64,000 nt of DNA from Deltaproteobacteria bacterium (lineage in GTDB: Bacteria; Myxococcota; Myxococcia; SLRQ01), in the NCBI GenBank assembly GCA_029210625.1, contig JARGFU010000001.1, positions 133,806-197,805 on the forward strand. Direction: 5' to 3'. A program made the position numbers and the translations under genes. Under the pieces are notes generated by a model. It searched no databases. It was not told where the DNA came from and saw only the letters and a list, made by a program, of their open reading frames with translations. This document shows positions 4,816 through 55,855 of this stretch, one piece after another (positions within the stretch are counted from its first letter, which is position 1; each line of letters starts with the position of its first letter).

Positions 4816-4917
4816 ACCATCAGCCCCGACGCCACCGAGCTCGAGTGCGATGGCTTCGACAACGACTGCGACCCCCTGACGCCGGACGACCTCGACCTCG
4901 ATCAGGACGGAGTCGGT

Positions 4918-11946: not shown

Positions 11947-11970
11947 GGGAGCGGCTCCTGCCTTCGAAGA

Positions 11971-12345: not shown

Positions 12346-12496
12346 CCGGCTCTCTCCTCCAAGGCTCCAAATGGAGATTGATTCTCAACAGACAAGAGCC
12401 TGCGCCGGCCCCCGAGGATTCACCAGCCGGCATTTTCCCGGGTGGCCCTCGGGAAAATCTAGGGGGCGGAGGCCCGTGCTACCCTGGTTTGCGCAG

Positions 12497-18656: not shown

Positions 18657-18672
18657 CGTGCTCTCCTCTCGC

Positions 18673-19170: not shown

Positions 19171-19223
19171 GGCTCACCTCCGAGGCCGGCATCATGGCCC
19201 GAACCGCTCCCGTGGATCCAGCT

Positions 19224-39566: not shown

Positions 39567-41505
39567 AGGCGCCGGCGTCCCAGCAGTCGGGGGCCGTGCC
39601 GCTCTGGCAGACGTTGCGGGCGGCGCCGAGCAGGTCGGTGCTCACCCCGTAGGCCGTGAGGTCCATGCCGATGTCGAGGGCCGCGGAGGTGGCGTCGAGG
39701 CGGTAGTCGAAGAGCTGGTAGCTCGCGCCCGCCAGCACGAAGGGCCGCAGGTCGCCCAGCACGGTGAGGGTCGTGGCGGAGTTCGCCAGGATCGGGAACT
39801 GGTGCACCGTCGCCGTGTCCGCCTGCACGAAGCGCCCGGCGTGCTCGCCGGCGGTCCAGCCGGCGTCGGCGTCGGTGAGGGTGGTCTCGACGACCTGGGG
39901 ATCCCAGCTGACCTCGTCCCAGGCGCCGCTGGCGGTCCCCGGCACGGTGACGAAGCCGGGCGCGGCGTCGACGACCCCGGCCCCGAGCGCGCAGGTCCCC
40001 TGGCCCCCACAGCCGAACCCCTCGAAGAGGGAGGCCTCGACCTCGATCACACCGGCGGCGGTGTTGCACCAGAGATCGGAGCCCGGCTCGTGATCGGCCA
40101 GGACGCTCCCGTAGACGCGGGAGAGGTTGCCCCGGTTCCAGAGGATCCCGCCGTAGGCCGTCGGGAGGTTGTTCGCCACGAGGTTCGAGTCGTGGGAGGC
40201 CGCGTTGGCGAAACAGAGCGTCTGCTCCGCGGCCTCGTTCCCGGCGACGACCGTCCGGCGCAGCTCGGTCGCGCTCCAGTTCGACATGAGCGCTGCGCAG
40301 CGGTTCCACTGGACGTCGTTCCAGGTCTCGTTGGCGACGAAGGAGCAGTCCTCGAAGACCACCGACGACTCGTGGATCCGGGCGCCGCCCCCTTCCGTGC
40401 GGGCGGAGTTGCTGACGAAGGCGGTGTTGGCCACCCGCACGTTCTGTGCGCCGACGGCGAGGAAGCCACCGCCGTCGTCGTCGACGATCTCGTAGTCTCC
40501 GAAGCGGCCCTCGGCCCGCCCACCGGTCACCACGAAGCCATCGAGGGTCGAGTTGCTCGTGGCGGTGACCACGTGCCAGACCTGCTCGGCCGAGTCGGGG
40601 CCGGCGTGGCCGTCGAGGATGGTGCGGTTCGTCCGCCAGTCACGCTCGGCGCGGGTCTGCTCGGTGCCGGCGAAGCCACCGTAGAGGGCCACCCAGGGCC
40701 GGAGCGCGATCGTGTCGGTCGGGTGGTCGTCGTAGACCCAGTAGTGCCCGGCCCGCACCCAGACCTCGCAGTGCTGCCCGTAGCCCGCGGCCCGCTTCGC
40801 CGCGAGCGCGATCCCGGCGTCGATCGAGGGCAGCGCGCCGGCCCAGGACTCGCCGTCGCAGCCGGTGCAGGTCGCCGCCGGATCGACCATCACCCGGCAG
40901 GTGCCGCAGTCCGTACCGGTCCAGCTCGGCCGGCAGACGCACTGCGACCCGTCGCAGTCCTGGTGAACTCCGCAGGCAGGGTCGCAGGCCACCAGCTCGC
41001 AGAGCCCGTCGAGGGGCTCAACCTCGGCGTCGAGAGCGCAGGCCCGCGCCACCTGCCCGCTCGAGTCGTCGCAGACCTCGTGGGGCTCGAGGGGCGGCAG
41101 GGCGATGTTGTCGCAGCCGGGCAGGCAGCTGCCGTCCCGATCGTGGTCCTGGTAGCCGGCCCGGCACCAGCAGCCGCTCATCGGCTCCTGGTAGCCACAG
41201 ACCCAGTCGGGCTCGACCTGACACTGGAAGCAGCCGTCACCCGGAAGATCGTTGCCGTCGTCGCACTCCTCGGCGGCGCCGAAGCCGTCGACCCAGGCGA
41301 AGCCGTCCCCGCAGAAGGCCTCCTGGCAGGTCCCCTGCGGACCGCTGGGGCAGGCGTCGTTGATCGAGAGGTTGCCGTCCTCGCAGCCCTCCCCCGGATC
41401 GAGGGTCGTGTTGCCGCAGGCCGGCTCTCCACCCCCGGGGAGGGCGAAGTCCCGATTGCAGGCGGACAGGGCCAGGAGCAGCAGGGGGAGCCGGGCGGTT
41501 CTCAC
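39553..41505 (-). CDS. Lipoprotein with Myxococcus cysteine-rich repeats and a right-handed parallel beta-helix domain
   Basis: Lipobox LLALSACN. Cys-rich repeats GEGCEDGNLSINDAC… and EECDDGNDLPGDGCFQC. Beta-helix repeat pattern in the C-terminal half. Confidence 0.6.
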   Translation of the reverse strand: MRTARLPLLLLALSACNRDFALPGGGEPACGNTTLDPGEGCEDGNLSINDACPSGPQGTCQEAFCGDGFAWVDGFGAAEECDDGNDLPGDGCFQCQVEPDWVCGYQEPMSGCWCRAGYQDHDRDGSCLPGCDNIALPPLEPHEVCDDSSGQVARACALDAEVEPLDGLCELVACDPACGVHQDCDGSQCVCRPSWTGTDCGTCRVMVDPAATCTGCDGESWAGALPSIDAGIALAAKRAAGYGQHCEVWVRAGHYWVYDDHPTDTIALRPWVALYGGFAGTEQTRAERDWRTNRTILDGHAGPDSAEQVWHVVTATSNSTLDGFVVTGGRAEGRFGDYEIVDDDGGGFLAVGAQNVRVANTAFVSNSARTEGGGARIHESSVVFEDCSFVANETWNDVQWNRCAALMSNWSATELRRTVVAGNEAAEQTLCFANAASHDSNLVANNLPTAYGGILWNRGNLSRVYGSVLADHEPGSDLWCNTAAGVIEVEASLFEGFGCGGQGTCALGAGVVDAAPGFVTVPGTASGAWDEVSWDPQVVETTLTDADAGWTAGEHAGRFVQADTATVHQFPILANSATTLTVLGDLRPFVLAGASYQLFDYRLDATSAALDIGMDLTAYGVSTDLLGAARNVCQSGTAPDCWDAGAYERP

Positions 41506-42314
41506 CCTCCGAGCCTAGAACGAGATCCGGACTCCCGAACAGCCTCGGGCTCCCCGAGCGGCGCCGCGACGAAGTAGCCGTAGGTGTAGGCGTCGGAGAA
41601 GCGCTCGAAGAGCGCGATCTCCTCCCGGGCCGTGGCGGCGATCTCGCCGGCCACCGGATCCTCCGGCAGGTCGCGCACGAGCTCTTCGATCCTCTGCCGC
41701 ATGGGCGCGTAGTACTCGTCCCACCAGGCCGAGGGAGGCAGAGGGAAGGACGCCAGGGACGCGTAGCCCGCCGCCTCGATCTCGGCGCGAACCCCGGCCT
41801 CGTCGGTGATGGCCGGATACTCGGCCTCCCACCACCGGCGGAGCTCCGGCGGGGGATCGGGCACCCGCCAGATCGCCTCGGTGAAGATCACCACGCCTCC
41901 GGGAGCGAGCAGCCGCCTCCAGGCCTCCAACCCCACCCGCACGCCGAGGTTGTAGATCGCTCCCTCCGAGCAGATCAGGTCCTGGCTGGCGGGCTCCACC
42001 GGCGGGGAAGCCATGTCCCCGACCTCGACCCGCACCCTCCCGGCGAGGCCGACCTGCTCGATCCGCTCGCGAGCCCGCGCCACCAGCGGCGCCGAGAGAT
42101 CGAGGGCCAGGATCTCGGCGCCGGGGAGCGCTGCCGCGAGGGCCAGGGTCTGCGCCCCCGGGCCACAGCCCAGATCGAGCACCCTCGCCGGCGCCTCACC
42201 CGGGACGAGCGCCAGGGCGCGGCGGGTGTGCGCGTCCGCACCAGGACCCGCCCGGGGCAGCGTCCCGTAGACCCGGAGGAAGAGCGCCATGGTTCGCGGA
42301 TCGGCGAGGTCCAT
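41502..42314 (-). CDS. Class I SAM-dependent methyltransferase
   Basis: Motif I VLDLGCGPGAQT. Confidence 0.7.
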   Translation of the reverse strand: MDLADPRTMALFLRVYGTLPRAGPGADAHTRRALALVPGEAPARVLDLGCGPGAQTLALAAALPGAEILALDLSAPLVARARERIEQVGLAGRVRVEVGDMASPPVEPASQDLICSEGAIYNLGVRVGLEAWRRLLAPGGVVIFTEAIWRVPDPPPELRRWWEAEYPAITDEAGVRAEIEAAGYASLASFPLPPSAWWDEYYAPMRQRIEELVRDLPEDPVAGEIAATAREEIALFERFSDAYTYGYFVAAPLGEPEAVRESGSRSRLGG

Positions 42315-42348
42315 GGCGGTCAGGGTAGCACCGGGGATCCCCGGCTGC

Positions 42349-45300
42349 TCAGCCCAGCGCCTCGGCCACGGCCCGGAGCAGATCCTCGCTGCGGACCGGC
42401 TTGGCCAGCAGCTTGAACTCCTGGCGGAGGAGGCCGGGATCCAGCTCGCGAGGCAGATACCCGGAGCAGACGACGATGGGGCGCCCCGGGTAGCGCTCCC
42501 GGAAGTCCGCCACCAGCCGGTGGCTCGGATAGCCGGGCATCACCCCGTCGGTGAAGAGGAGATCGATGTCGGCGTGGAGCTCCACCAGGCGCCGCGCCTC
42601 GTCCCCGTCGGCGGCCTGGAGGACCTCGAAGCCCGCTTCCTGGAGGATCGCGCAGAAGACGCTGCGGACCAGCTCGTGATCCTCGGCGACCAGCACCTTC
42701 CCCCGGCGCTCCCCCGAGCTGGGCGCCGGCGCCCGCGCGGGGCTGCCCGGCGCGCTCTGGAGCGGCCAGCGGACCTCGAAGCGGGTGCCCTCCCCCGGTG
42801 CGCTCTGCACCGAGAGGCTCCCCCCGCTGCGATCGATCAGGTGCCGGACCGCGGCGAGGCCGAGGCCGGTGCCCCGCCCCTTCTCCTTGGTGGTGAAGAA
42901 GGGCTCGAAGGCCTGCTCGAGGGTCCGGGCGTCCATCCCCACGCCGTCGTCGGCGACCACCAGGGTCACGCGCTCCGCGTCCCGCGAGGTCCGGACCGTG
43001 AGCCGCCCTCCCGCCGGCATGGCGTGGATCGCGTTCTGGGTGAGGTTGAAGACGATCCGGTTGAGATCCCGCACCTGGGAGAGGACGTGGCAGCCCGGCG
43101 CGAGCTCGAAGTCGAGCTCGATCGAGCGGGGGGCGCGCCGCTCGACCAGCCGCAGCGCGCGCTGGAGCGTGGACGAGAGCTCCACGACCTCGTCGGCCCC
43201 CGTCACGATGTCCGAGTCGGTCGTGAACTGCTCGACCAGGGTCTCCGCGTAGTCCGCCGCCATCTCGAGATCCAGGACAGCCCGGCGGCGGCCCGCCTCG
43301 TCGAGCATCTCGAAGCGCTCCAGGATCCAGGTGCTGGAGACGAGGGTCTGGATGGCGTTGTTGAAGTCGTGCACGACCGCCCCGGCCAGCTGACCCATGT
43401 CCTCGATCCGGGCGGTCCGGGCCTCCATCTGCTGCAGCCGCTCGACCTTCTCGCCCTCCTCCTCCCGGAGGGCCTGCGCGGCCTCGAGATCGGCGATGGC
43501 GTGGGTCATGTCCTCGATGGTGCGCTGGGCTCCCCGGAAGACCCCGAAGGTCAGCACGCCGCTGCAGGTGAAGGCGGTCCCCAGCATGAAGGCGACCCTG
43601 AACCAGTTGCGGGCGTGGACCGGCGAGAAGTCCTCCAGCGGCACCGACAAGATCCCCTGCTGGTGCAGGAGGCCGCCGGCGAGGAAGAGGAGGGCGAAGA
43701 GGGCCAGGAGCGAGACGATCATCCACCGGCGGCTGAAGACCGCCGCCAGGGCGGCCACCAGGCTCAGGAGCGCCACCGAGATCGCGGAGAGGAAGCTGTT
43801 GAACACCAGGAGCGGCGCGGCGACGCAGAGGATGCTCGCGTAGAGCAGCCCGTTGCGTACTCCCCGGCCGAGCCCCGGCACCCAGCCGCCGATGGCCCCG
43901 AGGATCGCGGCGCCCGCCACGCCGAAGAGCGAGCGCAGCAGCACCGCCCGATCGAACTGGATGAAGGGATAGGGGGCCAGCGCGACGAAGTAGAGCACCG
44001 TGAAGACCCGCAGCATCTTCTGGACGAGCCGGTGGGACCAGTCGTCCAGATCCTCGGGCGCGGCGGGGGCCACCGGCCCGGGGAGCGGCGCGGGGGTGGC
44101 CTCGGCAGGAGCGGCGCCGATCGACGGCCCTCGCGAGACGACCGCGGCCGGGGTGGGGATCCCGGCGAGGGGGGCGGGCTCCCGGGCGGGCGCCTCGCTC
44201 GCCTCCAGATCCGGGAAGAGAGCCCGGACCCTCGTGCCCTCTCCCACCTCGCTCTCGATGGCGAGGGTGCCGCCGAAGGCCTCGACCAGCCCGATGGCGG
44301 TCGAGAGCCCCAGCCCCGAGTGCTTCTCGGGGCTCCGGGTCGTGAAGAAGGGCTCGACCGCCCGGCGCCTCACCTCCTCCTCCATCCCCTCTCCCGTGTC
44401 TCGCACCGAGACCTCCACGTAGCGCCCGGGAGGGATGGGGGTGATGGCATCGAGGGGCGTCTCCGCGAGCTCCCGGCGCTGGACCCGCACCTCGATCGTG
44501 CCGCCCGCCTCCACGGCGTCGGAGGCGTTGAGCACCAGGGAGAGGAGGACCTGCCGCAGCCCCTCGGGGCTGAGCTCGGCGAGGCAGCCCTCGTCCGCGG
44601 AGATGGTCACCCGGACGTCCTCCCGCAGGGCGCTGATCAGCCCCTCGCGGTGGCCGAGGACCTCCGCCCCCACGTCCACCCGCTTCGGCTCGACCGGGTC
44701 GCGACGGCTGAAGGCCGTCAGGTCCGAGAGCAGGGTGACGCCCTGCTCCGTGATCTGCTGGATCCGCCGGGCGAGGCGCTGCGCCGCCTCCGGCGTCGCC
44801 TCGGCGCGCAGCTCGTCCACGGCGAAGCGCACGACCGTGAGGATGTTGTTGAAGTGATGGGCGAGGCCGTGGGCGAGGTGCCGGATGGCCTGGGAGCGGT
44901 AGCTGTCCCGCAGCTCGTCCTCCCGCGCGGCCCGCTCGCTCCGCAACGCCTCCGATCGCATCGTCTCCGCGGCCGTCTCCTCGAGGAGCTCCCGGGTCGA
45001 GGCATGGAGGCGGCGCATGCTCGTCATCGCGAAGCGGAGCATCGCGACCATCACCGAGGTGATCAGCAGGAAGAGGGTCCCCGAGCGCAGCCAGTGATCC
45101 AGCACCGTGGGGTCGATCGCCCGGCCGTCGATGTCGAGGACCCCGGCCCGGATCAGCGCGCCCCCCGCCAGGAAGGCCGCCGTGATCCCGGCGGCCACGA
45201 CGTAGAACGCCCGCCGTCCGAGGAGCAGCACGGCGAGGGAGACCAGGAGGAAGCTCGTCGCCGTGTTCACCGGGGTCCAGCCCAGCTGGAGGATGAAGAC

Positions 45301-45564
45301 CACGAGGGCGAGCGCGAGGCTGCTGACCAGGTACCAGCTCCGCAGCCGCTGGGTGACCCCGGGAGCCCGCAGGAGCAGCACCCCGAGGAGGCCGACCCCG
45401 AAGGCGATCCCGACCGAGGGGAGATAGGTGCGCGGCAGCCAGAAGACGGCGACGAGGGGGATGAGGACGAGGCCGCCGACCACCAGGCGATAGGCGGTGC
45501 GAGAGAGCCGCAGCTGCCAGTCGCGCAGGTCGCTCGCGCCGGTGGCTCCCTCCAGCCCGACCAT
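42349..45564 (-). CDS. Hybrid sensor histidine kinase/response regulator with two tandem TM-sensor + HisKA/HATPase modules and a C-terminal receiver
   Basis: Two H-boxes (HGLAHHFNNIL, VVHDFNNAIQTL) and two G-boxes (GLGLSTAIGL, GTGLGLAAV). Two blocks of 5-6 TM helices. C-terminal REC (VLVAEDHELV…DLLFTDGVMPG). Confidence 0.85.
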   Translation of the reverse strand: MVGLEGATGASDLRDWQLRLSRTAYRLVVGGLVLIPLVAVFWLPRTYLPSVGIAFGVGLLGVLLLRAPGVTQRLRSWYLVSSLALALVVFILQLGWTPVNTATSFLLVSLAVLLLGRRAFYVVAAGITAAFLAGGALIRAGVLDIDGRAIDPTVLDHWLRSGTLFLLITSVMVAMLRFAMTSMRRLHASTRELLEETAAETMRSEALRSERAAREDELRDSYRSQAIRHLAHGLAHHFNNILTVVRFAVDELRAEATPEAAQRLARRIQQITEQGVTLLSDLTAFSRRDPVEPKRVDVGAEVLGHREGLISALREDVRVTISADEGCLAELSPEGLRQVLLSLVLNASDAVEAGGTIEVRVQRRELAETPLDAITPIPPGRYVEVSVRDTGEGMEEEVRRRAVEPFFTTRSPEKHSGLGLSTAIGLVEAFGGTLAIESEVGEGTRVRALFPDLEASEAPAREPAPLAGIPTPAAVVSRGPSIGAAPAEATPAPLPGPVAPAAPEDLDDWSHRLVQKMLRVFTVLYFVALAPYPFIQFDRAVLLRSLFGVAGAAILGAIGGWVPGLGRGVRNGLLYASILCVAAPLLVFNSFLSAISVALLSLVAALAAVFSRRWMIVSLLALFALLFLAGGLLHQQGILSVPLEDFSPVHARNWFRVAFMLGTAFTCSGVLTFGVFRGAQRTIEDMTHAIADLEAAQALREEEGEKVERLQQMEARTARIEDMGQLAGAVVHDFNNAIQTLVSSTWILERFEMLDEAGRRRAVLDLEMAADYAETLVEQFTTDSDIVTGADEVVELSSTLQRALRLVERRAPRSIELDFELAPGCHVLSQVRDLNRIVFNLTQNAIHAMPAGGRLTVRTSRDAERVTLVVADDGVGMDARTLEQAFEPFFTTKEKGRGTGLGLAAVRHLIDRSGGSLSVQSAPGEGTRFEVRWPLQSAPGSPARAPAPSSGERRGKVLVAEDHELVRSVFCAILQEAGFEVLQAADGDEARRLVELHADIDLLFTDGVMPGYPSHRLVADFRERYPGRPIVVCSGYLPRELDPGLLRQEFKLLAKPVRSEDLLRAVAEALG

Positions 45565-45806
45565 CAGTGCCCCCAGACCTCGTCGATGAAGAGCTCGAGG
45601 CCCCCGAAGAAGACCTGGCCGATCAGGACGACCAGCCCGAGGAGCGCCAGCAGGAGGATCCCGCTGACCACGACGCAGCCGGCGGTGCCGATCCCGAGGC
45701 CGAGGAAGAACTGGCGGGGCGTCTCTCCGGGGTGGATCCCGGCGGCCGCGAGCTCCTCCCCCGAGAGGGCCTCGACCTCGTCGGGAGGGCGTGGCGAATC
45801 GGTCAT
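45564..45806 (-). CDS. Small (80 aa) membrane protein translationally coupled to the hybrid kinase
   Basis: AGGAG RBS. One or two TM helices. Its stop overlaps the kinase start (ATGA). It starts 11 nt after the TonB-dependent receptor stop. Confidence 0.45.
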   Translation of the reverse strand: MTDSPRPPDEVEALSGEELAAAGIHPGETPRQFFLGLGIGTAGCVVVSGILLLALLGLVVLIGQVFFGGLELFIDEVWGH

Positions 45807-45817
45807 CAGGAGATCTC

Positions 45818-48040
45818 CTAGAAGCGGCTGCGCAGGTAGCCCTGGAGGCGGGGCAGGATGGGGTGGCCGTAGTAGTTGCTGCCGTCCTCGAGGTACTCGC
45901 CCGAGGTCTCCCGCATCTCCAGGCCGAGGATCGGGGTGTGACCCTGGAGGCCGGCCTCCCACTCGGTCCCGCCGAGCCCGAAGGCCCAGCCCGCCCGGGC
46001 GAAGACCAGGGTGTTCGCCGCCAGCGGGGTGTTGCGGTTCGGCGAGAGGATGGAGTCGGGGGAGACGTGCCCCCCCCAGAAGCCCGAGGTCCAGAAGGCG
46101 AAGGCGGAGAGGCGCAGACCCTCGCCCCCGTAGCGGGCCCCGAGGATCAGGTGGTGGGTGGGCTCCCGCTTGTTCCTCCGCTGCTCCACCTCGCCGCCCG
46201 GCAGCTCCACCCGCTCGTAGACCTGATCGAGCCCGTAGGCGAGGTCGAGCTCGAGCCCCTCGATCGGCAGGCGCCAGGACGCGGCGATCTCCGCGCCCGC
46301 CGACCAGCTCTTGCTCGGGAAGGACTCGAAGACGAGCTTCACCTCGTCCCCGATGATCGGCAGCCCGGCGAAGTACTGGACGTCCCAGAGGGAGGAGGCG
46401 TCGAGTTCGATCTCGTCCCGGTAGCGGGAGAGATAGAGCTCGACCTCCACCCGGAGCTTCTCCTGGAGGAAGCGGCCCCGCCAGCCGAGCTCGGCGATGT
46501 CGACCTTGGTGTTGACCAGCTCCTCGCCGCCGAGGCCGGTCGCGAAGATGTGCTGGATGCGCCGGAAGAGATCCTGGTCCTGCAGGGTGCCGGGCTCGAG
46601 GAGGAGGTGGCCCTTCTGCTCGAAGAAGGAGGGCTGCCGGTAGGCGCGCGCCACCGAGGCCCGCACCGTGTGGTGCTCCATCGGCCGGTAGACGGCGGTC
46701 AGGCGGGGAGAGAAGCCGGGCTCGGGGACCAGGGTGTTGTAGCCCGCCCGGACCCCGGCGTTCAGCTCGAGCGACGAGGCGACCCGCCACTCGAGCTGGG
46801 TGAAGCCCTCGACGCGGCCCTCGAAGAGCACGCTCGGCTCGCAGGCGGCCGGATCGAAGGCCGTCGGGGCGCTCTCGGGGCAGGTGACGAACGATCCCTC
46901 GCCGTGGTGGACGAGCCGGGTCGAGAGCCCGGTGAGGAGGCGCAGGTCGTCCGAGAGCTTCCAGATGCGCTCGGCGTCGGCCACGTAGGCCCGGGTGGGG
47001 TGGAAGACGGGCTGGGGGAGCTGCGCCATCACCATCGACGGGTCGTTCGGCATGCGCAGGTTCAGGTCGAGGGTCAGCTCGGTGTCGAGGAGATCGAAGA
47101 AGAAGCGCAGCCGCCAGTCGTGGACGATGGCGTCGGCCCGCACGTAGAGGTGCTCGTAGTAGCCGTCCCCGTTCCCGGCGAAGGTCACGATGTCGCCGCG
47201 CTCGGCGCCGCCGCCGACCTCGAGGGTCGCCTCGACCTCGTCGCCCTCGTAGCGCAGCCAGTTCCGGCTCCGGAAGAACCAGGCCCCCACCCGCCCGGGC
47301 TCGTGGAAGGGCGACCGGCGGTCGTAGCCCCAGGAGCTCCACCAGCTGAAGCGGCCCCTCGTCCCCGAGGCCTTCAGGTTGCCGGAGAGGGTCTCGGGGC
47401 GGTAGCCGGAGAGCTCGGCCTCGACCGTCAGCAGGCCCTTCTCGGCCCGGCGGGTGACGATGTTCACCACGCCCTGCAGGGCGTTCGCCCCGTAGAGGGT
47501 GGAGGCCGGGCCCCGGATGACCTCGATCCGCTCGATGGAGGCCAGGTCGACCGGCATCGCCAGCCAGAGGGGCAGCTGGAAGATCGGCAGGAGCACGTCG
47601 CGCCCGTCCACCAGCACCAGGATGTTCGAGCCCTCGTTGCTCGAGCCCGAGCGGGAGCCACTGGAGGGGAACGCGATCGTCAGGAGCCAGACGTCCATCC
47701 CCGGCACCGTGCGCAGGACGTCCGCGACGTTGTCGAAGGGCATCAGGCGCAGGTCTTCCCGGGTGATGACCGTGATCGCCGAGGGCGAGTCGTCGATCCG
47801 CTGGGCGCGGCGCGAGGCCGAGACGACGATGTCCTCCTGCACCAGCAGGGCGAACTCGTCGCTGATGTCGAGATCCTCGAGGGACTCGAAGTCGAAGGCC
47901 GCCTCGAGGGCCGCCTCGTCGATCAGCGCCTCCTCGGGGACGCCCTCCTCGGCGGCGCGCACCTCACCGGGCGCCACCGCACAGCAGAGCACGGCAAGCA
48001 GTCCCCCCACTCGAATTCGACCCACACGCTCGAGTGACAT
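45818..48040 (-). CDS. TonB-dependent outer-membrane receptor
   Basis: Signal peptide MSLERVGRIRVGGLLAVLCCAVAPGEVRA. Plug motifs (DSPSAITVITRED, IEVIRGPASTLYG). Terminal Phe on the barrel. The upstream 730 aa of the track ORF are rejected. Confidence 0.8.
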   Translation of the reverse strand: MSLERVGRIRVGGLLAVLCCAVAPGEVRAAEEGVPEEALIDEAALEAAFDFESLEDLDISDEFALLVQEDIVVSASRRAQRIDDSPSAITVITREDLRLMPFDNVADVLRTVPGMDVWLLTIAFPSSGSRSGSSNEGSNILVLVDGRDVLLPIFQLPLWLAMPVDLASIERIEVIRGPASTLYGANALQGVVNIVTRRAEKGLLTVEAELSGYRPETLSGNLKASGTRGRFSWWSSWGYDRRSPFHEPGRVGAWFFRSRNWLRYEGDEVEATLEVGGGAERGDIVTFAGNGDGYYEHLYVRADAIVHDWRLRFFFDLLDTELTLDLNLRMPNDPSMVMAQLPQPVFHPTRAYVADAERIWKLSDDLRLLTGLSTRLVHHGEGSFVTCPESAPTAFDPAACEPSVLFEGRVEGFTQLEWRVASSLELNAGVRAGYNTLVPEPGFSPRLTAVYRPMEHHTVRASVARAYRQPSFFEQKGHLLLEPGTLQDQDLFRRIQHIFATGLGGEELVNTKVDIAELGWRGRFLQEKLRVEVELYLSRYRDEIELDASSLWDVQYFAGLPIIGDEVKLVFESFPSKSWSAGAEIAASWRLPIEGLELDLAYGLDQVYERVELPGGEVEQRRNKREPTHHLILGARYGGEGLRLSAFAFWTSGFWGGHVSPDSILSPNRNTPLAANTLVFARAGWAFGLGGTEWEAGLQGHTPILGLEMRETSGEYLEDGSNYYGHPILPRLQGYLRSRF

Positions 48041-48157
48041 TGCCGGACTCGATCCTATTCGAGCGCCGGGGGCTTGGACAGCTTCCGGCCGTGCCCCCCT
48101 GAAACGCGCTCGGCGCCGGTGTTCGATCCGGGATCGAAGCAGGTATGCTGCGCCGCC

Positions 48158-49783
48158 ATGCGTGCCCCGAAGATCGACGCCCTCGCCCTCTGCGCTCTCC
48201 TCACCCTGACCGCCTGCGGTGGAGGCGAGGCCGGTGGGGGCGACGGGGGTCAGCCGCCCTGCGGCGAGTGCGACGGCGGGACGTCCTCGGACCTGGAGGC
48301 CGACCTGACGATCGACAGCGGCCCGATCCACGGCGTGGAGGACGGCGACCTCGTCATCTTCCGGGGCGTCCCCTACGCCGAGGCGCCGGTGGGCGCGCTG
48401 CGCTTCCGCAAGCCCGTGCCGGTGAGCCCCTGGACCTCGCCGAGAGATGCGACGGCCTTCGGGCCGCCCTGCGTGCAGCGGGATCACACCGGCGCGATGG
48501 TGGGCGACGAGGACTGCCTCACGGTCAACATCTGGGCCCCGCGCGCGGCCGGCGCGCCGAGGCCGGTGATGGTCTTCATCCACGGCGGAGCCTTCCTGCA
48601 GGGCAGCGCGAACCTCCCGGTCTACGACGGCGCCTCCATCGCCCGCACCGGCGAGGTGGTGGTGGTGACGCTCCAGTATCGCCTCGGGGCGCTCGGCTTC
48701 TTCGTCGACGACGCGCTCCTGACCGAGGAGAGCGGCGCGGGCAACCAGGGGATCCGCGATCAGCAGCTCGCCCTCGACTGGGTGCAGCGCAACGCCGCCT
48801 TCTTCGGGGGCAACCCCGGAGAGGTCACGATCTTCGGCGAGTCCGCCGGCGGCATCTCGGTCTGCGCTCACCTCGGGGCGCCGAGCAGCGACGGCCTCTA
48901 CGCCCGGGCCATCGTCCAGAGCGGCACCGGCTGCTACGGGATGCAGCGCCTGCGGGTGCCCACCGTCGTGCACGTCTCGGCGATCAGCCAGGCCGAGAAC
49001 GTGATCACCGAGGCGGGCTGCCAGAACGCGAGCGACGCCCTGGCCTGCCTGCGGGCCCTGCCGGCGACCACCGTGATCGACGCGGGCCTCTCCGGCGCCG
49101 CCAACAACCTCGGCCTCGCCGACTTCGGACCGGTGATCGATCAGGTCCTGCTCTCCGAGGCCCCCTTCGACCGCGTGCGGCGCGGTGAGCGCAGCACCAT
49201 CACCATCGTCTCCGGCGCGAACGCCGACGAGGGGAAGACCTTCACCCAGGGCCTCTCGATCCCCGACACCGCGACCTACGAGTCGACGGTGCGCGCGGTG
49301 CTCCCCCTGCAAGCCGACGAGGTCCTCGCCCTCTATCCGGCCTCGGCCTTCGCCTCGCCCAAGGACGCCTACGACGCGCTCCTCTCCGACCTGGCCTTCA
49401 TCTGCCCCGCCCTCTCCTTCGCCGAGGCCGCCGGGGAGGGCGGCGGCGAGGCCTACAGCTACCACTTCACCCACACCCTCACGGGCCTGGCCTCCTCCTG
49501 GGGCAGCTTCCACGCCCTCGAGCTCTGGTACCTCTTCGACACCCTCGACACCTTCCCGAGCTACTCGGCCACCGCCGCCGACCAGCGGGTCTCCCTGATG
49601 CTGCGCGAGGCCTGGACCGACCTGGCCCACGGGCGGACGCCGCTCGCCGACCTGCCCTGGCTCACGACCACCGGCGCCGCGCCGCAGATCGGCCTGCTGG
49701 CCGATCCCCCCTCCACCGCCACCGAGATCCGCGGTGGCCGCTGCGACGGCCTCGAGGGGCTGGGCCTGGTGCGGGCGCCCTGA
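48158..49783 (+). CDS. Carboxylesterase type B family lipoprotein
   Basis: Lipobox LLTLTACG. EDCLTVNIWAP and the nucleophile elbow GESAGG. Confidence 0.8.
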   Translation: MRAPKIDALALCALLTLTACGGGEAGGGDGGQPPCGECDGGTSSDLEADLTIDSGPIHGVEDGDLVIFRGVPYAEAPVGALRFRKPVPVSPWTSPRDATAFGPPCVQRDHTGAMVGDEDCLTVNIWAPRAAGAPRPVMVFIHGGAFLQGSANLPVYDGASIARTGEVVVVTLQYRLGALGFFVDDALLTEESGAGNQGIRDQQLALDWVQRNAAFFGGNPGEVTIFGESAGGISVCAHLGAPSSDGLYARAIVQSGTGCYGMQRLRVPTVVHVSAISQAENVITEAGCQNASDALACLRALPATTVIDAGLSGAANNLGLADFGPVIDQVLLSEAPFDRVRRGERSTITIVSGANADEGKTFTQGLSIPDTATYESTVRAVLPLQADEVLALYPASAFASPKDAYDALLSDLAFICPALSFAEAAGEGGGEAYSYHFTHTLTGLASSWGSFHALELWYLFDTLDTFPSYSATAADQRVSLMLREAWTDLAHGRTPLADLPWLTTTGAAPQIGLLADPPSTATEIRGGRCDGLEGLGLVRAP

Positions 49784-49787
49784 AGCG

Positions 49788-50747
49788 ATGTCGCTCGCCT
49801 CGCTCACCCGATGGGGGCTGACGCTCGCCCTGCTGCTGGCCCTCACCGCCTGCCAGGATCCGACCGGTGAGATCTTCACGCCGGCCGGCCTCCTGGAGCG
49901 GTACAACACCATGTGGTCGTGGCCGGCGGCCCACCGCGGCAAGTGCGCGGCGGGCGTCCCCGAGAACACCCTGGCCGCGATCGACTCCTGCGAGGAGCGG
50001 CGGATCGCGCTGATCGAGCTCGACCTGCGGGTGAGCGCCGACGGGGTCGTCTTCCTGATGCACGACGCGGACGTCGAGCGCACCACCGACGGTGAGCTGC
50101 GCTTCCCGGGCCGCACCTCGGTCGACGAGCTCACGGCCGGGGAGCTGCGCTCCCTGGTGATCGACGATCCCCTCTGCCACGCCGCCGCGAGCGCCCTGCC
50201 CCGCCGCTGCCGGGTGCCCACCCTGGCCGAGGCCCTGGCCTCCACCCGCGAGTCGGTGCTCCTCCTCGACTACAAGGGCGGCTCGCTCGAGGCGATCGCC
50301 GCCACCCTCGAGGCGGGCCACCCCGACAGCCGGCGGACGATCTTCCTCGACTCCAGCCTCGCGACCCTCCGGGAGATGCAGGTGCGCCTCCCCGAGCTGC
50401 AGCTGATGCCCCGGGCCGCCAACGTCCCGGAGACCGAGGCCTTCCTCACCTCGGGCTTGAGCTTCTCCTGGCTCCATGGCGACACCGGCTGGCTGGGTGC
50501 CATGCGCGAGACCTTCGCCGAGCTGGAGGTGCGCCCCTACGCCAACGTCTTCGACCTCGACGTGGGGATCTCCCTCGCCGCCGAGACCCTGAGCGAGGAG
50601 GAGTACGAGGCCTTCCTCGAGGAGACCATCCGCCCCACCCTCATGGACTACCGGGAGCTCGGCCTGGTCGGCTTCGGCACCGAGAGCCCCGCCACGATCG
50701 ACCGCCTCCTCAACGGCCACGGCGGCTTCGGCTGCTGTCCTCTCTGA
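49788..50747 (+). CDS. Glycerophosphodiester phosphodiesterase (GDPD) family lipoprotein
   Basis: Lipobox LLALTAC. HRG…PENT and IELDLRVSADGVVFLMHD motifs. Confidence 0.7.
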   Translation: MSLASLTRWGLTLALLLALTACQDPTGEIFTPAGLLERYNTMWSWPAAHRGKCAAGVPENTLAAIDSCEERRIALIELDLRVSADGVVFLMHDADVERTTDGELRFPGRTSVDELTAGELRSLVIDDPLCHAAASALPRRCRVPTLAEALASTRESVLLLDYKGGSLEAIAATLEAGHPDSRRTIFLDSSLATLREMQVRLPELQLMPRAANVPETEAFLTSGLSFSWLHGDTGWLGAMRETFAELEVRPYANVFDLDVGISLAAETLSEEEYEAFLEETIRPTLMDYRELGLVGFGTESPATIDRLLNGHGGFGCCPL

Positions 50748-50754
50748 GCAAACC

Positions 50755-51669
50755 TTGAGCACCCTCCTCGGCGAGCTGGCCTGCCTGGGCGCGGCGGCGG
50801 TCTGGGCCTTCTCCCTGACCCTCTTCCGGGGGCCCATCGCCGCGCACGGCTCGGTGGCGGTGAACCTCGTGAAGTGCGCGGTGGCCACCCTGCTGCTGGG
50901 CGGGACCACCCTCGCCCTCGGCCAGCTCGAGGCCCTGACCGGGGCGAGCCCCGCGGCGCTGATCTTCCTCGCCGCCTCGGGGGTCGTCGGCCTCTCCCTG
51001 GGCGACAACGCCCTCTTCGCGGCGGTGCACCGGCTGGGGGTGCACCGCACCCTGCTGCTGCAGACCACCGCCCCGATCTTCACCGCGCTGCTGGCCTGGG
51101 GCTGGAAGGGCGTGATCCCCACCGGCCCTCAGCTCCTCGCGGCGGTCGTCATCCTGGTGGGCGTGGCCCTGGTCGTCGCCCCCTCGCGAGGGGAGAGCGT
51201 CGAGGCGGACGGCGCCGACCACCCGGCGCCCCTCTCTCTCGGCGTCGCCTTCGCGGTGCTGGCCGCCCTCGGGCAGGGCTTCGGCATCGTGCTCGCCAAG
51301 GAGGGCATGAGCGAGGTGAGCGTCATCCCCGCCGCGACCTTTCGCCTCGGCGCGGCGGCCCTCGGCCTCTTCCTCCTGGCGATCCCGGGCGGCGGCCTCG
51401 GGCGCACCCGCGCGCTGCTGACGCACCGCCCCTCGGTGAAGCGGGTGATGCCGGCGACCTTCCTGGGCTCCTACCTCGCCATGATGCTGATGATGGCCGG
51501 CATCGCCTTCGCCCCCGCGGCCATCGCGGCGGTGCTCCTGGGCACCACCCCGATCTTCAGCCTGCTGGTCGAGTCGGCGGAGCAGCGCCGCCTGCCCGAT
51601 CTGCGCCCCACCGCCGGCACCCTCGTCGCCGTCGTCGGCGTCGCCGCCCTGGCCCTGCTCTCGGCCTAG
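50755..51669 (+). CDS. DMT-superfamily (EamA-like) transporter
   Basis: Ten TM helices with duplicated halves. Non-ATG (TTG) start as listed in the track. Confidence 0.65.
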   Translation: MSTLLGELACLGAAAVWAFSLTLFRGPIAAHGSVAVNLVKCAVATLLLGGTTLALGQLEALTGASPAALIFLAASGVVGLSLGDNALFAAVHRLGVHRTLLLQTTAPIFTALLAWGWKGVIPTGPQLLAAVVILVGVALVVAPSRGESVEADGADHPAPLSLGVAFAVLAALGQGFGIVLAKEGMSEVSVIPAATFRLGAAALGLFLLAIPGGGLGRTRALLTHRPSVKRVMPATFLGSYLAMMLMMAGIAFAPAAIAAVLLGTTPIFSLLVESAEQRRLPDLRPTAGTLVAVVGVAALALLSA

Positions 51670-52211
51670 CCAGGCACGTACGTCAGACCCACGCCGCCAC
51701 CACCGGGCCAGAGCAGCGGCGTGACGACCACCTCGGCCGGACGGCGGCGCCTCGAGAGGAGCCGCTGGGCGATCATGGCCGCGCCGATCGCGAGGACCCC
51801 GAAGCCCACGCCCGCCAGGGCCGGCTCACCGTGGTAGAGCGCGAAGCCCGCCAGGGTCGCGCCGGCGAGGCCGAACACGATGGCGGGGCCCACCGGCCCC
51901 AGCTCCAGGAGCGACCAGCCGGCGAGCCCGACGAGGAAGCCTCCGGCGGTCAGGGCGCCACCGAGCAGGATGCCCGTCGTGTAGGACCACGGAGCACAGT
52001 CACCCGGGCTCGCCATCCAGCAAGGAAAGGCCAGCGAGAGCCCCCCCGCCACCATCAGGGCGCCGCCCGCGGAGAGCAGGACCGTGCCATCGACTCGCCG
52101 GTGCTCCTTCTGGACCTCCGCCTGCGCCGCGCTCGAGTCGGCCCGAGCGTGAGCCGAGGGAGCGCAGAGGAAGAGAACCACCAACAGCGACGTCACTCCG
52201 TACCGCGTCAT
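51666..52211 (-). CDS. Hypothetical membrane protein
   Basis: MTRYGVTSLLVVLFLCAPSAHARA signal peptide followed by 3-4 TM helices. GGAGGGA RBS. It is the only protein-like part of the 767-aa track ORF. Confidence 0.45.
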   Translation of the reverse strand: MTRYGVTSLLVVLFLCAPSAHARADSSAAQAEVQKEHRRVDGTVLLSAGGALMVAGGLSLAFPCWMASPGDCAPWSYTTGILLGGALTAGGFLVGLAGWSLLELGPVGPAIVFGLAGATLAGFALYHGEPALAGVGFGVLAIGAAMIAQRLLSRRRRPAEVVVTPLLWPGGGGVGLTYVPG

Positions 52212-52255
52212 GCCGACTCCCTCCATCTGCCAGGCCGCTCTCTCCGTGGCCGCCC

Positions 52256-55200
52256 TCAGACGAGCGCGGAGAGGTAGTCGGCGCGCAGGCCCTCGTCGCG
52301 CAGGACGTCGTAGGCGTCGTCGAGGCCGCGGCGGATCTCCTCGAGCTTGCCCCAGAGATCCTGGTAGATGACGTCGGCGTAGCGGGCCGGCTGCATCTCC
52401 CGGGAGAGGCGCTCGTAGGCCTCCTTGATCTCGTAGGCGGTGGCGTCGCGGGTGACGCCGAGGATCTCGAAGTAGTCGGCGTCCAGCGCCTGGCGGAACT
52501 TCTCCTCGATGCGGGTGCGGTCGATCACCGCCTGGCTCTGCGCCTCCTCGGGAGTCGAGGCCCGGCCCTCGGGCATGGCGCCGCGCACGCGCACGGAGAC
52601 CTGACCAGTCGACTCGAGGACGTAGAGCACCTGGTAGGTGGGCTCCTCGCCGAGCCCCGAGAGGAAGACCAGCTCCTCGGCGGAGTGGAGCCCATCGACG
52701 CTGGTGGCCACCCGCCGCTCGCGGGCCGAGAAGCCGAAGACCTGCCAGTCGCCCGCGGTCTCGGTGGGAGCGAGCACGGTGGCCGGCCCGCCGAGGCAGC
52801 GGTGGATGCGATCGAGGGTGTACTTGCGGCGGATGCCCTCGGCGACGAGCGCGAAGGGATGATCGGGCAGGGCCACCCGGGCGTCCTCCGGGCAGACGGC
52901 CTGGATCCAGCGCCAGCGCCCCTCCTCCTCGGAGAAGGCCCCGAAGAGCGCCGCCTGGGCCTGGGCCCGGACCGTGTCGTAGAGCTCCTGGGCCTTGAGC
53001 TGCCCGGCCTCGACCAGGGCGACGGCCGCCTGGCGGGGGAGCAGATCGCCCTCGGCCCGGATCTGCCGCGCCTGCTGGCGGGTGATCCGGCCCAGGCGGC
53101 AGGCGACCTCCTCCAGGCGCTCCGCCGCCGAGGTGGAGCTGGCGCCCACGACCCGGCCGAGCTCGACGAAGACGGCGCGGTTCACCGCGGCGCCGTGGAT
53201 CTCCAGCACGCCGGTGGCCCGGGCCCGGTAGAGGTCGGCCAGGAGCCGCGGCAGATCCCGCTCGAGGAGATCGCCCTCCTCGGGGAAGGGCGCGCCGGTG
53301 GGGTTCGGCTGGATGTCCTGGGGCGCCGGCGAGTGCGGCGCGGGCGCCGGCGGCGGCGCGGGGTTGCGGGGCGGGAGGGGCTGCGGCATGGGCGGCGGCT
53401 CCACGGGAGGCGGCGGCGGGGGCGCGGCCTGCTGCACCGGCGCCGGGGCGACGGGCGCGGGCGCCATCGCGGGGGCGGCGAGGCCTCCGTAGGAGGGTGC
53501 CGGCGGAGGCGGAGGTGGGGGCGGCTGCTCGGCGATGATCGGCGCCGGGGGCGGCGGCGGTACGGCGATGATCGGCGCGGGAGGCGGTGGAGGTGGCGGG
53601 GCAGGCGTCGGGGGCTCGTAGCCCCCCCAGGTGGGCGCGGCCAGGGCCTCGGGGTCGAGCCCCTCGGCACCCTCCACCACCCCCTCCTCCGTGGCGGTCT
53701 CGGCGGCACCCCAGCCTGCGGCGGCGCTGGCCTCGATCTCGGGTCCGCCCCCGAAGGGATCGAGGAGCATCGAGCCCTCTTCGACCTCGGCCGGCGGGGC
53801 CGGGATCGGAGGCTCGGGCTCCGGGTCGGGCGCATCGAGATCGATCGCCAGCCGGCTGCTGCGCTCGACGGGCTCTCCCTGCAGGGACTCCAGCTCGTAG
53901 GTGGTCGGACCGCCGGCGCCCCAGCCCGAGGCCCGGGTCGGCGCAACCTCGCGCTCGAAGGAGGTCCACCCTCCCTCGACCACCGCCGAGCGAGCGGGCC
54001 GTGGCGCCGGAGCAGGTGCGGGGGCGGGCGCCGGGGGCTCGGGCTCGGGCGGCGTGGCCGCCACCTCGATGGGCCCGGCGCCGGGTTCGTCCGGGAGCGC
54101 CTCGTCCTCGAGCATCGACTCGAGGTCCTCGAGATCCTCGTCGCGCTCGGCCTCCTGCTGGGCCCGGCGCTCGGCCTCGGCCTGGGCAGCCCGCTCGGCC
54201 TCGGCCTCGGCCAGGCGGCGGGCCTCCTCGCGGGCCTTCTCCTTCGCGGCGCGCTTGGCCGCCTTGCGGGCAGCCTCCTCCGCCTCGGCCTTGCGGCGCA
54301 GCTCCTCCGCCTCACGGCGGGCTTCCTCCGCGGCCAGGCGGGCAGCCTCCTCGGCCGCGAGCCGCGCCGCCTCGGCCTCGGCCTCCCGGCGCGCTGCCTC
54401 CTCGGCCGCCTGACGCTCCGCCTCCTCGGCCGCGAGCCGCGCTGCCTCCTCGGCCGCCTGACGCTCCGCTTCCTCGGCCGCCTTCTGCGCTGCCGCCTCT
54501 TCGGCCGCGAGCCGCGCTGCCTCTTCCTCGGCCGCCTGACGCTCTGCCTCCTCGGCCGCGAGCCGCGCCGCCTCTTCCTCGGCCGCCCTCTGCGCTGCCG
54601 CCTCTTCGGCCGCGAGCCGCGCCGCCTCTTCCTCGGCCGCCTGACGCTCTGCCGCCTCTTCGGCCGCGAGCCGCGCTGCCTCTTCCTCGGCCGCCTGACG
54701 CTCTGCCTCCTCGGCCGCGAGCCGCGCCGCCTCTTCCTCGGCCGCCTTCTGCGCTGCCTCCTCGGCGGCCTTGCGGGCCTCCTCCTCGAGGGCCCGCGCC
54801 CTGGCGTCCTCCTCCTCCCGGCGCTTGCGCGCGGCCGCGACCTTCTTCTTGGCCTCCGCCGCGGCGCGCTGCTTCATCGCCTCGGCCCGGCGCTTCGCCT
54901 CGGCCTCGGCCCGCTCCTTCACCAGGGCCTCTTCCTCTTCCGGGCTGGCGGCCTCGGCGCCGGCGGCGATCTCCCGGGCGGCCCGCTCCAGGTCGGCGGT
55001 GCGCTGGCGCTCGAGGGCGTCGGCCACCTCTCCCGCCGAGGCCGCGGTGACGGCGTCGTCGTCGGAGCCGGCCTCGGCGTCGCCCATCATCTCGGAGCCG
55101 ATGTCACCGAAGAGCTCGTCGGCCAGCTCCCCGGAGCGGCCCGGCTCGGTGACCTCCCAGGCGCCGGTGAAGCCCCGCTCCTCCTCCTCGGGGGCCGGGG

Positions 55201-55855
55201 CCCCACCCCCGGCGGCCGCGAAGGCCTCCTCGGCCCCCGTCGCGGTGAGGGCCTGGGCGCCAGGATCGGTGAGCGGCTCGTGCTCGTCCTCGTCGAGGGG
55301 CGAGGCCATGAAGGAGACCGAGGCCCCGGGGTCGGTGGCGCCGTCGTCCATCGCGGGGACCGGCGGCGGCGCCGCGGGAAGCCCGCTGATCGCGGCCAGG
55401 AACTCGGAGGCCTCCTCGTCGCTGGGACCGGGGAGGTCGGGGAGGTCGGGGACGGCGGTCACCGCGGTCTGCTCGCGGTCGCGGTCCATCCCCAGGTAGG
55501 CGTCGACCTTGGCGGCCACTTCGGCCCAGGGCACGGGCCGCCGGAAGAAGCCGTCGCCGCCGTTGGCCAGCGCCGAGGCCGCGTCGGTGACCTCGCCCTG
55601 GCCGTCGCCGATCATCAGCACCGGCAGCATCGGATCCTTGGCCTGCTGCCGGATCGTCTTGCAGATCTCCAGGCCCGAGTGCTCGTCGGTGGAGAGCGAG
55701 AGGATCACCAGCGCGGGATCGTCGTGCTCGATCACGACCTCGGCGTCCGCCGCGTTCGAGGCGACGACCGGCTCGTAGCCACCCTCCTTGAGGATTCGCC
55801 GGGCCGCGGAGACGGACGCGATGTCGTCGTCGATGACGAGGATGCGCTTGGGCAT
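52256..55855 (-). CDS. Multi-domain protein: pseudo-receiver (REC lacking the phospho-Asp), acidic region, E/A-rich 17-aa tandem coiled-coil repeats, Pro-rich region, DUF4388 (PATAN-like) domain, and a J-like domain lacking the HPD motif
   Basis: The N-terminal CheY-like fold (ILVIDDD…) has Ser where the phospho-acceptor Asp is expected (ALVILSLS). About 10 AAEEEAARLAAEEAERQ units. A PPPPPAP-rich tract. DUF4388 core GDLLERDLPRLLADLYRARATGVLEI…RAVFVELGRVV. C-terminal DYFEILGVTRDATAYEIKEAYERLSREMQPARY (J domain with HPD replaced by QPA). Confidence 0.8.
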   Translation of the reverse strand: MPKRILVIDDDIASVSAARRILKEGGYEPVVASNAADAEVVIEHDDPALVILSLSTDEHSGLEICKTIRQQAKDPMLPVLMIGDGQGEVTDAASALANGGDGFFRRPVPWAEVAAKVDAYLGMDRDREQTAVTAVPDLPDLPGPSDEEASEFLAAISGLPAAPPPVPAMDDGATDPGASVSFMASPLDEDEHEPLTDPGAQALTATGAEEAFAAAGGGAPAPEEEERGFTGAWEVTEPGRSGELADELFGDIGSEMMGDAEAGSDDDAVTAASAGEVADALERQRTADLERAAREIAAGAEAASPEEEEALVKERAEAEAKRRAEAMKQRAAAEAKKKVAAARKRREEEDARARALEEEARKAAEEAAQKAAEEEAARLAAEEAERQAAEEEAARLAAEEAAERQAAEEEAARLAAEEAAAQRAAEEEAARLAAEEAERQAAEEEAARLAAEEAAAQKAAEEAERQAAEEAARLAAEEAERQAAEEAARREAEAEAARLAAEEAARLAAEEARREAEELRRKAEAEEAARKAAKRAAKEKAREEARRLAEAEAERAAQAEAERRAQQEAERDEDLEDLESMLEDEALPDEPGAGPIEVAATPPEPEPPAPAPAPAPAPRPARSAVVEGGWTSFEREVAPTRASGWGAGGPTTYELESLQGEPVERSSRLAIDLDAPDPEPEPPIPAPPAEVEEGSMLLDPFGGGPEIEASAAAGWGAAETATEEGVVEGAEGLDPEALAAPTWGGYEPPTPAPPPPPPPAPIIAVPPPPPAPIIAEQPPPPPPPPAPSYGGLAAPAMAPAPVAPAPVQQAAPPPPPPVEPPPMPQPLPPRNPAPPPAPAPHSPAPQDIQPNPTGAPFPEEGDLLERDLPRLLADLYRARATGVLEIHGAAVNRAVFVELGRVVGASSTSAAERLEEVACRLGRITRQQARQIRAEGDLLPRQAAVALVEAGQLKAQELYDTVRAQAQAALFGAFSEEEGRWRWIQAVCPEDARVALPDHPFALVAEGIRRKYTLDRIHRCLGGPATVLAPTETAGDWQVFGFSARERRVATSVDGLHSAEELVFLSGLGEEPTYQVLYVLESTGQVSVRVRGAMPEGRASTPEEAQSQAVIDRTRIEEKFRQALDADYFEILGVTRDATAYEIKEAYERLSREMQPARYADVIYQDLWGKLEEIRRGLDDAYDVLRDEGLRADYLSALV
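54431..54770. repeat. Tandem 51/54-nt direct repeats (about 6 units) encoding the AAEEEAARLAAEEAERQ coiled-coil repeat
   Basis: The unit cgcgagccgcgc[c/t]gcctcttcctcggccgcctgacgctctgcc… recurs at 54431, 54506, 54557, 54611, 54665 and 54716. Confidence 0.8.

Follow-up and report, generated by a model that had tools for sequence, protein, structure and literature searches.

A tandem hybrid histidine kinase with two diverged MASE11-like modules, encoded beside a TonB-dependent receptor in a Myxococcota genome

The gene cluster and the domains of its kinase

We analysed a stretch of 64,000 nucleotides from a Deltaproteobacteria bacterium of the Myxococcota (contig JARGFU010000001.1, positions 133,806 to 197,805), called here the window, and concentrated on a hybrid histidine kinase of 1071 aa encoded on its minus strand (42349..45564). 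This kinase consists of two successive modules, each made of a MASE11-like sensor with six transmembrane (TM) segments, a dimerisation and histidine phosphotransfer (DHp) domain and a catalytic and ATP-binding (CA) domain, followed by one receiver (REC). Its gene is preceded by those of a TonB-dependent receptor and of a small membrane protein. The interpretation developed below, which we hold with about even confidence, is that the kinase belongs to a six-gene operon and is an asymmetric tandem enzyme, in which module 2 would be the main autokinase and module 1 a modulatory partner, the receptor being a conventional one whose link to the kinase is lineage-specific.

Long spurious open reading frames (ORFs) are plentiful in the window because of its GC content of ~72%, and real genes were chosen among them by third-position GC (GC3) and domain matches. 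The minus-strand cluster comprises six genes, three more than an earlier note on this DNA had described. It starts with the receptor gene (45818..48040, 740 aa), and the frame of an 80-aa orphan membrane protein (45564..45806) begins 11 nt beyond the receptor stop; these coordinates of the earlier note were confirmed. The stop of the 80-aa gene does overlap the kinase start, as the note had said, but its ATGA has to be corrected to TGATG, with 1 nt shared. A SAM (S-adenosylmethionine)-dependent methyltransferase gene (41502..42314) starts 34 nt past the kinase stop. The GTG start of a Cys-rich lipoprotein gene (DUF4215 / myxo_disulf_rpt, 39553..41505) then overlaps the methyltransferase stop (GTGA, 4 nt), and the final gene, for an EamA-family transporter (38613..39566), overlaps the lipoprotein gene by 14 nt at its start. 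From receptor to EamA, the junctions thus measure 11, -1, 34, -4 and -14 nt, and a terminator scan found no terminator-like site between the cluster genes. The six genes would form one operon, co-transcription being argued from this tight coupling.

The domains of the kinase were delimited as follows. Sensor 1 (residues 10-180, 45025..45537) has six TM segments and an invariant tryptophan, Trp158, just before TM6. It leads into transmitter 1 (residues 181-455, 44200..45024), which carries H236 (codon 44857-44859), H237 and N240 and in which the N, G1, F and G2 boxes of the CA domain are intact. A Pro/Ala-rich linker (residues 456-505, 44050..44199), predicted to be disordered and variable in length across the family described below, separates it from sensor 2 (residues 506-676, 43537..44049), which is homologous to sensor 1, also with six TM segments, and has the corresponding conserved Trp654. 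Transmitter 2 (residues 677-940, 42745..43536) carries H732-D733 (His codon 43369-43371), again with all CA boxes intact. The receiver (residues 956-1070, 42355..42699) has D1006 and K1055, both invariant in the family.

Pfam matched two HATPase_c domains (total E 4e-46), HisKA and Response_reg (residues 957-1066, E 5e-12) on the chain. The H-boxes read LAH236HFNN in module 1 and VVH732DFNN in module 2, and both CA domains hold their asparagine (N346 and N844), DxGxG, FF and GxGLGL. Both modules thus have the motifs of a class I (HisKA-type) hybrid kinase, except for the acid after the module-1 His. The motifs and domain matches agree with the earlier note, which had described two complete modules of multi-TM sensor, HisKA and HATPase followed by a receiver. 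It had also allowed that one module might be degenerate, lacking its H-box His or its G-box; both modules of the window kinase were found to keep them. The database entry that is 100% identical to the kinase is annotated 'MAG: ATP-binding protein', MAG being a metagenome-assembled genome.

The kinase cores of the two modules are 28% identical (E 4e-22) and collinear. Motifs common to both sensors are DLxDWxxRL, FLAGGxL and P....W.R, and a comparison of their profiles with hhalign gave a probability of 99.4% (E 2e-21). Judged by these alignments, modules 1 and 2 are collinear homologues over their whole length. MASE11 (PF20969) is a membrane-embedded sensor domain for which no ligand is known (Galperin & Chou, bioRxiv 10.1101/2021.11.05.467447). 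The window sensors gave no direct match to the Pfam MASE11 model at E<=10; it was matched directly by 3/33 family members (best E 3.7e-8). Both window-sensor profiles matched the sequences that pass the MASE11 cut-off (hhalign 98.4%, E about 1e-14), and on this profile evidence both sensors are divergent, MASE11-like domains.

The AlphaFold2 model of the kinase (predicted local distance difference test, pLDDT, 84.1; predicted TM-score, pTM, 0.59) has six TM segments per sensor, 12 in total. In both modules of the model TM6 runs on as one helix of ~100 residues (155-254 and 651-749) into the phospho-acceptor helix, and residues 457-496 of the linker are disordered. Since the TM count of each sensor is even, both kinase cores would be cytoplasmic, where the positive-inside pattern and hydropathy also place them. 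A Foldseek search of the PDB with the kinase returned ordinary DHp-CA and REC matches only, with query-normalised TM-scores <=0.18.

A kinase family with two unequal modules

Relatives of the kinase were searched exhaustively with HMMER over 1.84 billion cluster representatives. Besides the window kinase, 32 representatives of 1023-1186 aa were retrieved (n=33 in all family counts), with 27-35% identity to the query and aligned from its residue ~10 to ~1070. Their sequences stem from NCBI, JGI, ENA and Logan assemblies, and the named ones are all 'Myxococcota bacterium'; so far, the family has been seen in Myxococcota MAGs and metagenome contigs. Pairwise identity among the members is merely 29-48%, so the family should be old. 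Three other searches were less productive. Word-index protein searches with the kinase or the family alignment returned generic PAS/CckA-like kinases only and no full-length relative. A profile scan of genome contigs with an 8-sequence alignment gave 80 loci, dominated by a generic EPFFTTK pattern, with no family member among them. A metagenome scan with an alignment of the module-1 H-box gave 8 mostly short loci, 6 of which were new family loci, mostly holding part of the gene.

These homologues bear on the question whether the double kinase might be an artefact, in which a sequencing or assembly error in the MAG joined two adjacent kinase genes. Indeed, the linker is of low complexity, and in a genome of 72% GC an open frame may cross a spacer by chance. 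Against this, GC3 stays >=0.90 all through the linker, which argues for a single continuous coding frame, and the 32 independent homologues from four sources share the same continuous double architecture. We therefore rule the artefact out, leaving it a negligible probability.

A neighbour-joining tree was built from the kinase cores of both modules of the 33 members, with 200 bootstraps. All 33 module-1 cores formed one clade (163/200). The second clade held all 33 module-2 cores and, besides them, only two short proteins, which we take to be truncated family members. The two clades mean that the double architecture has a single origin, in the duplication of a whole module, and has persisted since. 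The tree thus indicates a single ancient duplication of a unit of 6-TM MASE11-like sensor, DHp and CA, as far as relationships among these cores can tell. Both modules evolve at similar rates. In both modules of every one of the 33 members, and likewise in single-module relatives, exactly 78 residues separate the conserved Trp ahead of TM6 from the phospho-acceptor His; such fixed spacing fits a rigid helical link from each sensor to its own DHp. The window kinase aligns with the family from end to end and has this spacing in both modules. At one family locus (L008), a 595-aa single-module paralogue is encoded at 11413-13200, ~1.3 kb downstream of the double kinase; it matches positions 474-1053 of the family profile with 530 bits.

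The closest comparison outside the family is with kinases in which MASE11, HisKA, HATPase and REC occur as a single module. They share with the window kinase the 6-TM sensor, the 78-residue Trp-His spacing, a CckA-like core and the C-terminal receiver, but have one module per chain and keep the acid of the H-box (AHDFNN). It is this acid that sets the two modules of the tandem family apart. An acidic residue at His+1 is present in module 2 of all 33 members and in module 1 of none, where the position is occupied by L (19 members), V (4), R (3), H (2) or others; in the window kinase, it is D733 in module 2 and H237 in module 1. Nearly all single-module relatives keep it, in the form AHD(F/L)NN. 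The phospho-acceptor His itself is found in 29/33 module-1 and 32/33 module-2 sequences, and the Asn at His+4 in 32/33 and 31/33, respectively. Work on four HisKA kinases showed that kinase activity, but not phosphatase activity, depends on the acid that follows the His (Willett & Kirby 2012, PMC3510030), and that Asn or Thr at His+4 is required for phosphatase but not kinase activity (PMC3510030). Applied to the family H-boxes, this rule predicts a module 1 that is weakened as a kinase yet competent as a phosphatase.

The ATP-binding sites of both modules are conserved in the family, and the motifs of the first CA domain (CA1) are intact in 32/33 members. The losses form a mosaic among six proteins. 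Four members (P0130, P0144, P0150 and P0151) lack the module-1 His, and CA1 is intact in all four; P0149 has a degenerate CA1 and keeps the module-1 His; and P0126 has lost the module-2 His.

This pattern has to be weighed against the possibility that the protein is simply two independent kinases fused in one chain. Each module would then build a homodimeric four-helix bundle together with its counterpart in another chain and autophosphorylate in response to its own membrane signal, with the shared receiver acting as an OR gate and module 1 using another general base. The retention of His, ATP motifs and 78-residue spacing in both modules, and their similar rates of evolution, would suit such an arrangement; so would the window kinase, in which no catalytic motif but the module-1 acid is missing. 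Moreover, nearly all two-transmitter proteins carry a receiver, which presumably integrates both transmitters (Williams & Whitworth 2010, PMC3018481). Two working kinases are nevertheless hard to reconcile with an acid that is missing from 33/33 module-1 H-boxes, whereas 33/33 module-2 H-boxes and almost every single-module relative have it and HisKA kinases require it for autophosphorylation (PMC3510030). Nor would one expect four members to have lost the module-1 His and kept CA1. Altogether, we consider this explanation doubtful.

A different use of the module-1 His would be a built-in His-Asp-His phosphorelay, in which phosphate passes from H732 to D1006, then to H236 acting like a histidine phosphotransfer (Hpt) domain, and on to an unlinked response regulator, in a permuted version of the TodS or RedC-F scheme. 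A phosphotransfer His needs no catalytic acid, which matches the module-1 H-box, and neither the kinase nor any window ORF scanned contains an Hpt domain. There is also precedent, as the second transmitter of TodS and RedE of M. xanthus take phosphate from a receiver (PMC3018481, PMC4321377). TodS, TmoS and StyS of Pseudomonas resemble the window kinase in having two sensor-autokinase units and one receiver per polypeptide (PMC4321377), and phosphate flow in these kinases has been shown to involve both transmitters (PMC4321377, with Busch et al. 2009 as cited there). TodS, however, is soluble, has PAS sensors and is ordered transmitter-receiver-transmitter (T-R-T), whereas the window kinase has 12 TM segments and no PAS domain, is ordered T-T-R and re-enters the membrane after its first core; none of the three features that define the TodS type was found in it. 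The order T-T-R instead of T-R-T thus speaks against an internal relay, as does the absence of the H236 equivalent from 4/33 members that keep all else. The complete ATP site of CA1 is a further difficulty, since a pure phosphotransfer module should be free to lose it; Spo0B and ChpT did lose their ATP sites. We regard such a relay as improbable.

The receptor, the small membrane protein and the neighbouring genes

The receptor has a signal peptide, the TonB box DIVVSAS, a Plug (residues 83-191, E 4e-18), a TonB-dependent barrel (286-688, E 1e-20) and a C-terminal Phe (...LRSRF), as conventional TonB-dependent receptors do. Whether it might carry an N-terminal signalling extension, a point raised in the earlier note, was checked in two ways. 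The signalling domain STN gave no match even at E<=10, and only an acidic low-complexity stretch of ~39 aa lies ahead of the TonB box. In alignments, residue ~69 of the receptor falls on residue ~7 of mature CirA/BtuB, whereas FecA has already reached residue 126 at this point and FpvA residue 109 or 152, according to the entry used. No signalling extension is thus present, and by these features the receptor is a conventional transporter. We also considered a substrate on the basis of the likeness of the plug to CirA, PirA, PfeA and BtuB. This assignment was dropped because the plug alone aligned and all scores were far under the family cut-offs.

GC3 in the frame of the 80-aa protein is 0.85-1.0, a usual level for genes of this genome with its 72% GC, and an AGGAG within the 11-nt gap after the receptor lies 8 nt 5' of the ATG. 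The protein has an acidic N-terminus and, as the earlier note had it, a single hydrophobic stretch, of 38 residues (approximately residues 33-70), followed by ~10 residues. With so short a tail it cannot span the periplasm or reach the outer membrane. It has no Pfam or NCBIfam match and no FecR-like part, and its sole match among 5.8 billion proteins was itself. It is probably a lineage-specific membrane accessory of the kinase, to which it would be translationally coupled; the function is guessed from this putative coupling. MgrB and SafA are small membrane-protein modulators of PhoQ. The 80-aa protein is, like them, a short single-pass protein that accompanies a membrane kinase, but has no sequence similarity to them.

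The earlier note had likened the arrangement to TonB-dependent transducer and anti-sigma signalling, in which occupancy of the receptor would be signalled through the 80-aa protein to the kinase, with a phosphorelay as output. Only the order of the three genes and their close coupling speak for it. In the FecA-FecR-FecI system, a TonB-dependent receptor likewise lies beside a single-pass membrane protein and a regulator, but there the receptor has a signalling domain, FecR is an anti-sigma factor and the regulator is an extracytoplasmic function (ECF) sigma factor. At the window locus, the receptor has no STN, the 80-aa protein is not FecR-like, and no ECF sigma factor was found among the ORFs scanned. 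These ORFs, which cover the window but for a few stretches, gave no sigma-70_r2/r4 match and included no gene for FecR, TonB, ExbBD or Hpt. The receptor lacks the domain needed for transduction, and the 80-aa protein, without homologues, is too short for contact with the outer membrane.

The neighbourhoods of other family members are equally unfavourable. Of other family loci, 16 were retrieved, which represent about 11 independent ones. Where genes were called, the kinase neighbourhoods were unrelated to one another, and none of the loci had a receptor gene within 7-10 kb of the kinase; tblastn with the window receptor found nothing in 16/16. At the nine loci checked for it, no hydrophobic small ORF was present upstream of the kinase, and tblastn with the 80-aa protein gave nothing significant. 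As neither partner accompanies the kinase elsewhere, the linkage is peculiar to this genome. Altogether, we consider the transducer scheme very improbable.

A closer parallel is offered by PfeS/PfeR-PfeA-PfeE and PirS/PirR-PirA of P. aeruginosa, where an inner-membrane kinase is encoded beside a conventional receptor and an esterase (PMC8001512). PfeS senses ferri-enterobactin only once PfeA has imported it (PMC8001512). PfeS differs in being a single-module kinase with a periplasmic domain and an adjacent regulator gene, whereas the window locus has membrane-embedded sensors, no regulator gene and a linkage that is not conserved. The link between the receptor and the kinase is best understood as co-regulation or as periplasmic sensing of an imported ligand, and not as signalling by the receptor itself; the Pfe-type logic is an analogy here and not a finding.

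Upstream of the receptor, a divergent intergenic region of 117 bp (48041..48157) is the presumed promoter region of both operons. It had no sigma-70 consensus match in a promoter scan and no Rfam match, and an Rfam scan of 38000-52500 found no riboswitch, including none ahead of the receptor. On the plus strand follow the genes of a carboxylesterase-family lipoprotein (48158..49783, true start 48158, signal LTLTAC) and of a glycerophosphodiester phosphodiesterase (GDPD) lipoprotein (49788..50747, true start about 49788, signal LALTAC). The earlier note had correctly placed both as divergent, and lipoprotein signals were found in both. A second EamA-family transporter (50755..51669) ends this operon, so that EamA-family genes close both divergent operons, one per side (38613-39566 and 50755-51669).

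Within the minus-strand cluster, a perfect 14-nt palindrome, CCGGGGATCCCCGG, lies at 42331-42344 inside the 34-nt gap between the kinase and methyltransferase genes, with no T-run after it, and might act as a weak attenuator or serve for binding of a factor. At the far end of the cluster, a GH92 alpha-mannosidase gene (36218-38698, plus strand) converges with the EamA gene (38613-39566, minus strand), with a 3' overlap of ~86 nt. Two adjacent plus-strand ORFs at 4333-6765 carry MopE-type putative metal-binding repeats, the first also DUF4215, and resemble the Cys-rich lipoprotein of the minus-strand operon. The only other two-component element near the locus, outside the operon, is a 1199-aa protein (52256-55855, minus strand) with an N-terminal receiver, DUF4388 and a C-terminal DnaJ domain. 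This DUF4388 protein and the myxobacterial Cys-rich repeat of the lipoprotein both indicate Myxococcota.

Two further features of the window were recorded. A 782-aa ORF at 30660-33008 (plus strand) matches Pfam MVP_shoulder (E 6e-31) and a Vault_3 repeat (E 6e-9), and by these domain matches looks like a bacterial gene similar to that of the major vault protein. At 17577-19173 (minus strand), the ORF of a T2SSE/PilB-like secretion ATPase overlaps one with a cyclic-nucleotide-binding domain, both being stop-to-stop calls; the pair may represent one cNMP-regulated ATPase or two separate genes.

Proposed working of the tandem kinase and its meaning

In the asymmetric scheme that we propose, module 2 would be the main autokinase, phosphorylated on H732, as suggested by its complete H-box. 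The phosphate would move on to D1006 in the receiver of the chain and then leave it for an unlinked Hpt protein or response regulator. Judging from its motifs, module 1 would be a partner with weakened kinase activity that still binds ATP and has its phosphatase Asn. It would serve as a second membrane-embedded input, tuning the output through phosphatase or regulatory activity, and would most likely pair with module 2 in the manner of the two protomers of an ordinary kinase dimer.

Several points weigh against this interpretation. The co-transcription of the six genes is inferred from gene spacing only, and the link between receptor and kinase is seen in one genome. Neither an Hpt nor a response-regulator partner of the kinase was found in the locus. 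HWE/HisKA_2 kinases autophosphorylate without an acid after the His, and given this precedent module 1 may still be an active kinase. Furthermore, the strict conservation of the CA1 ATP site seems to exceed the needs of a purely regulatory role. Finally, the pTM of the model would be weakly suggestive, at best, of packing between the modules within the chain; as evidence for such packing it was rejected as too weak.

A further reading, which we put forward tentatively, is that the protein is a natural single-chain pseudo-heterodimeric kinase. The DHp hairpins of the two modules would come together in a single four-helix bundle within the chain, and the MASE11-like domains in a single sensor with 12 TM segments. 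H732 would then be phosphorylated in trans by CA1, with H236 left as a vestigial or regulatory site. The suggestion of the earlier note that the internal duplication reflects two inputs or heterodimer-like signalling thus remains viable, and it is sharpened by the asymmetry of the H-boxes throughout the family.

Double-transmitter hybrid kinases as such are already documented, in the myxobacterial censuses and in TodS, which is the characterised example (PMC4321377). Two-transmitter proteins made up 51 among 4650 hybrid kinases (Williams & Whitworth 2010, PMC3018481), and the class with at least two transmitters and one receiver is enriched 11.75-fold in myxobacteria (Whitworth 2015, PMC4603909), where one case of tandem duplication and fusion has been described (PMC4603909). 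With two complete transmitters and its receiver, the window kinase falls into this class of two transmitters and at least one receiver (PMC3018481, PMC4603909). The multi-transmitter proteins of myxobacteria singled out in the census are mostly singletons without orthologues, whereas the tandem MASE11 family comprises at least 33 clusters, which share one ancient origin and the same fixed asymmetry. Three aspects are new: a tandem-transmitter family that is conserved, though rare, instead of singletons; a chain that is predicted to re-enter the membrane between two MASE11-like sensors; and the fixed loss of the kinase-specific acid in module 1 with retention of the ATP site.

For this genome, the adjacency of receptor and kinase represents no new type of TonB-dependent signalling. 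The broader interest lies in the kinase family, which provides a defined set of proteins for the MASE11 domain. Histidine kinases are homodimers whose halves act asymmetrically in catalysis, and this is hard to study since the halves are identical. In the tandem MASE11 family, two diverged halves have been fixed in one chain over long evolutionary time. Were the halves to pair inside the chain, they could be mutated one at a time in a natural protein, which would allow direct tests of which ATP site serves which His and of how two sensors are integrated. Should the protein indeed be a pseudo-heterodimer, it would be the equivalent of a covalently fused homodimer with a permanent division of labour, ready-made for cis/trans studies.

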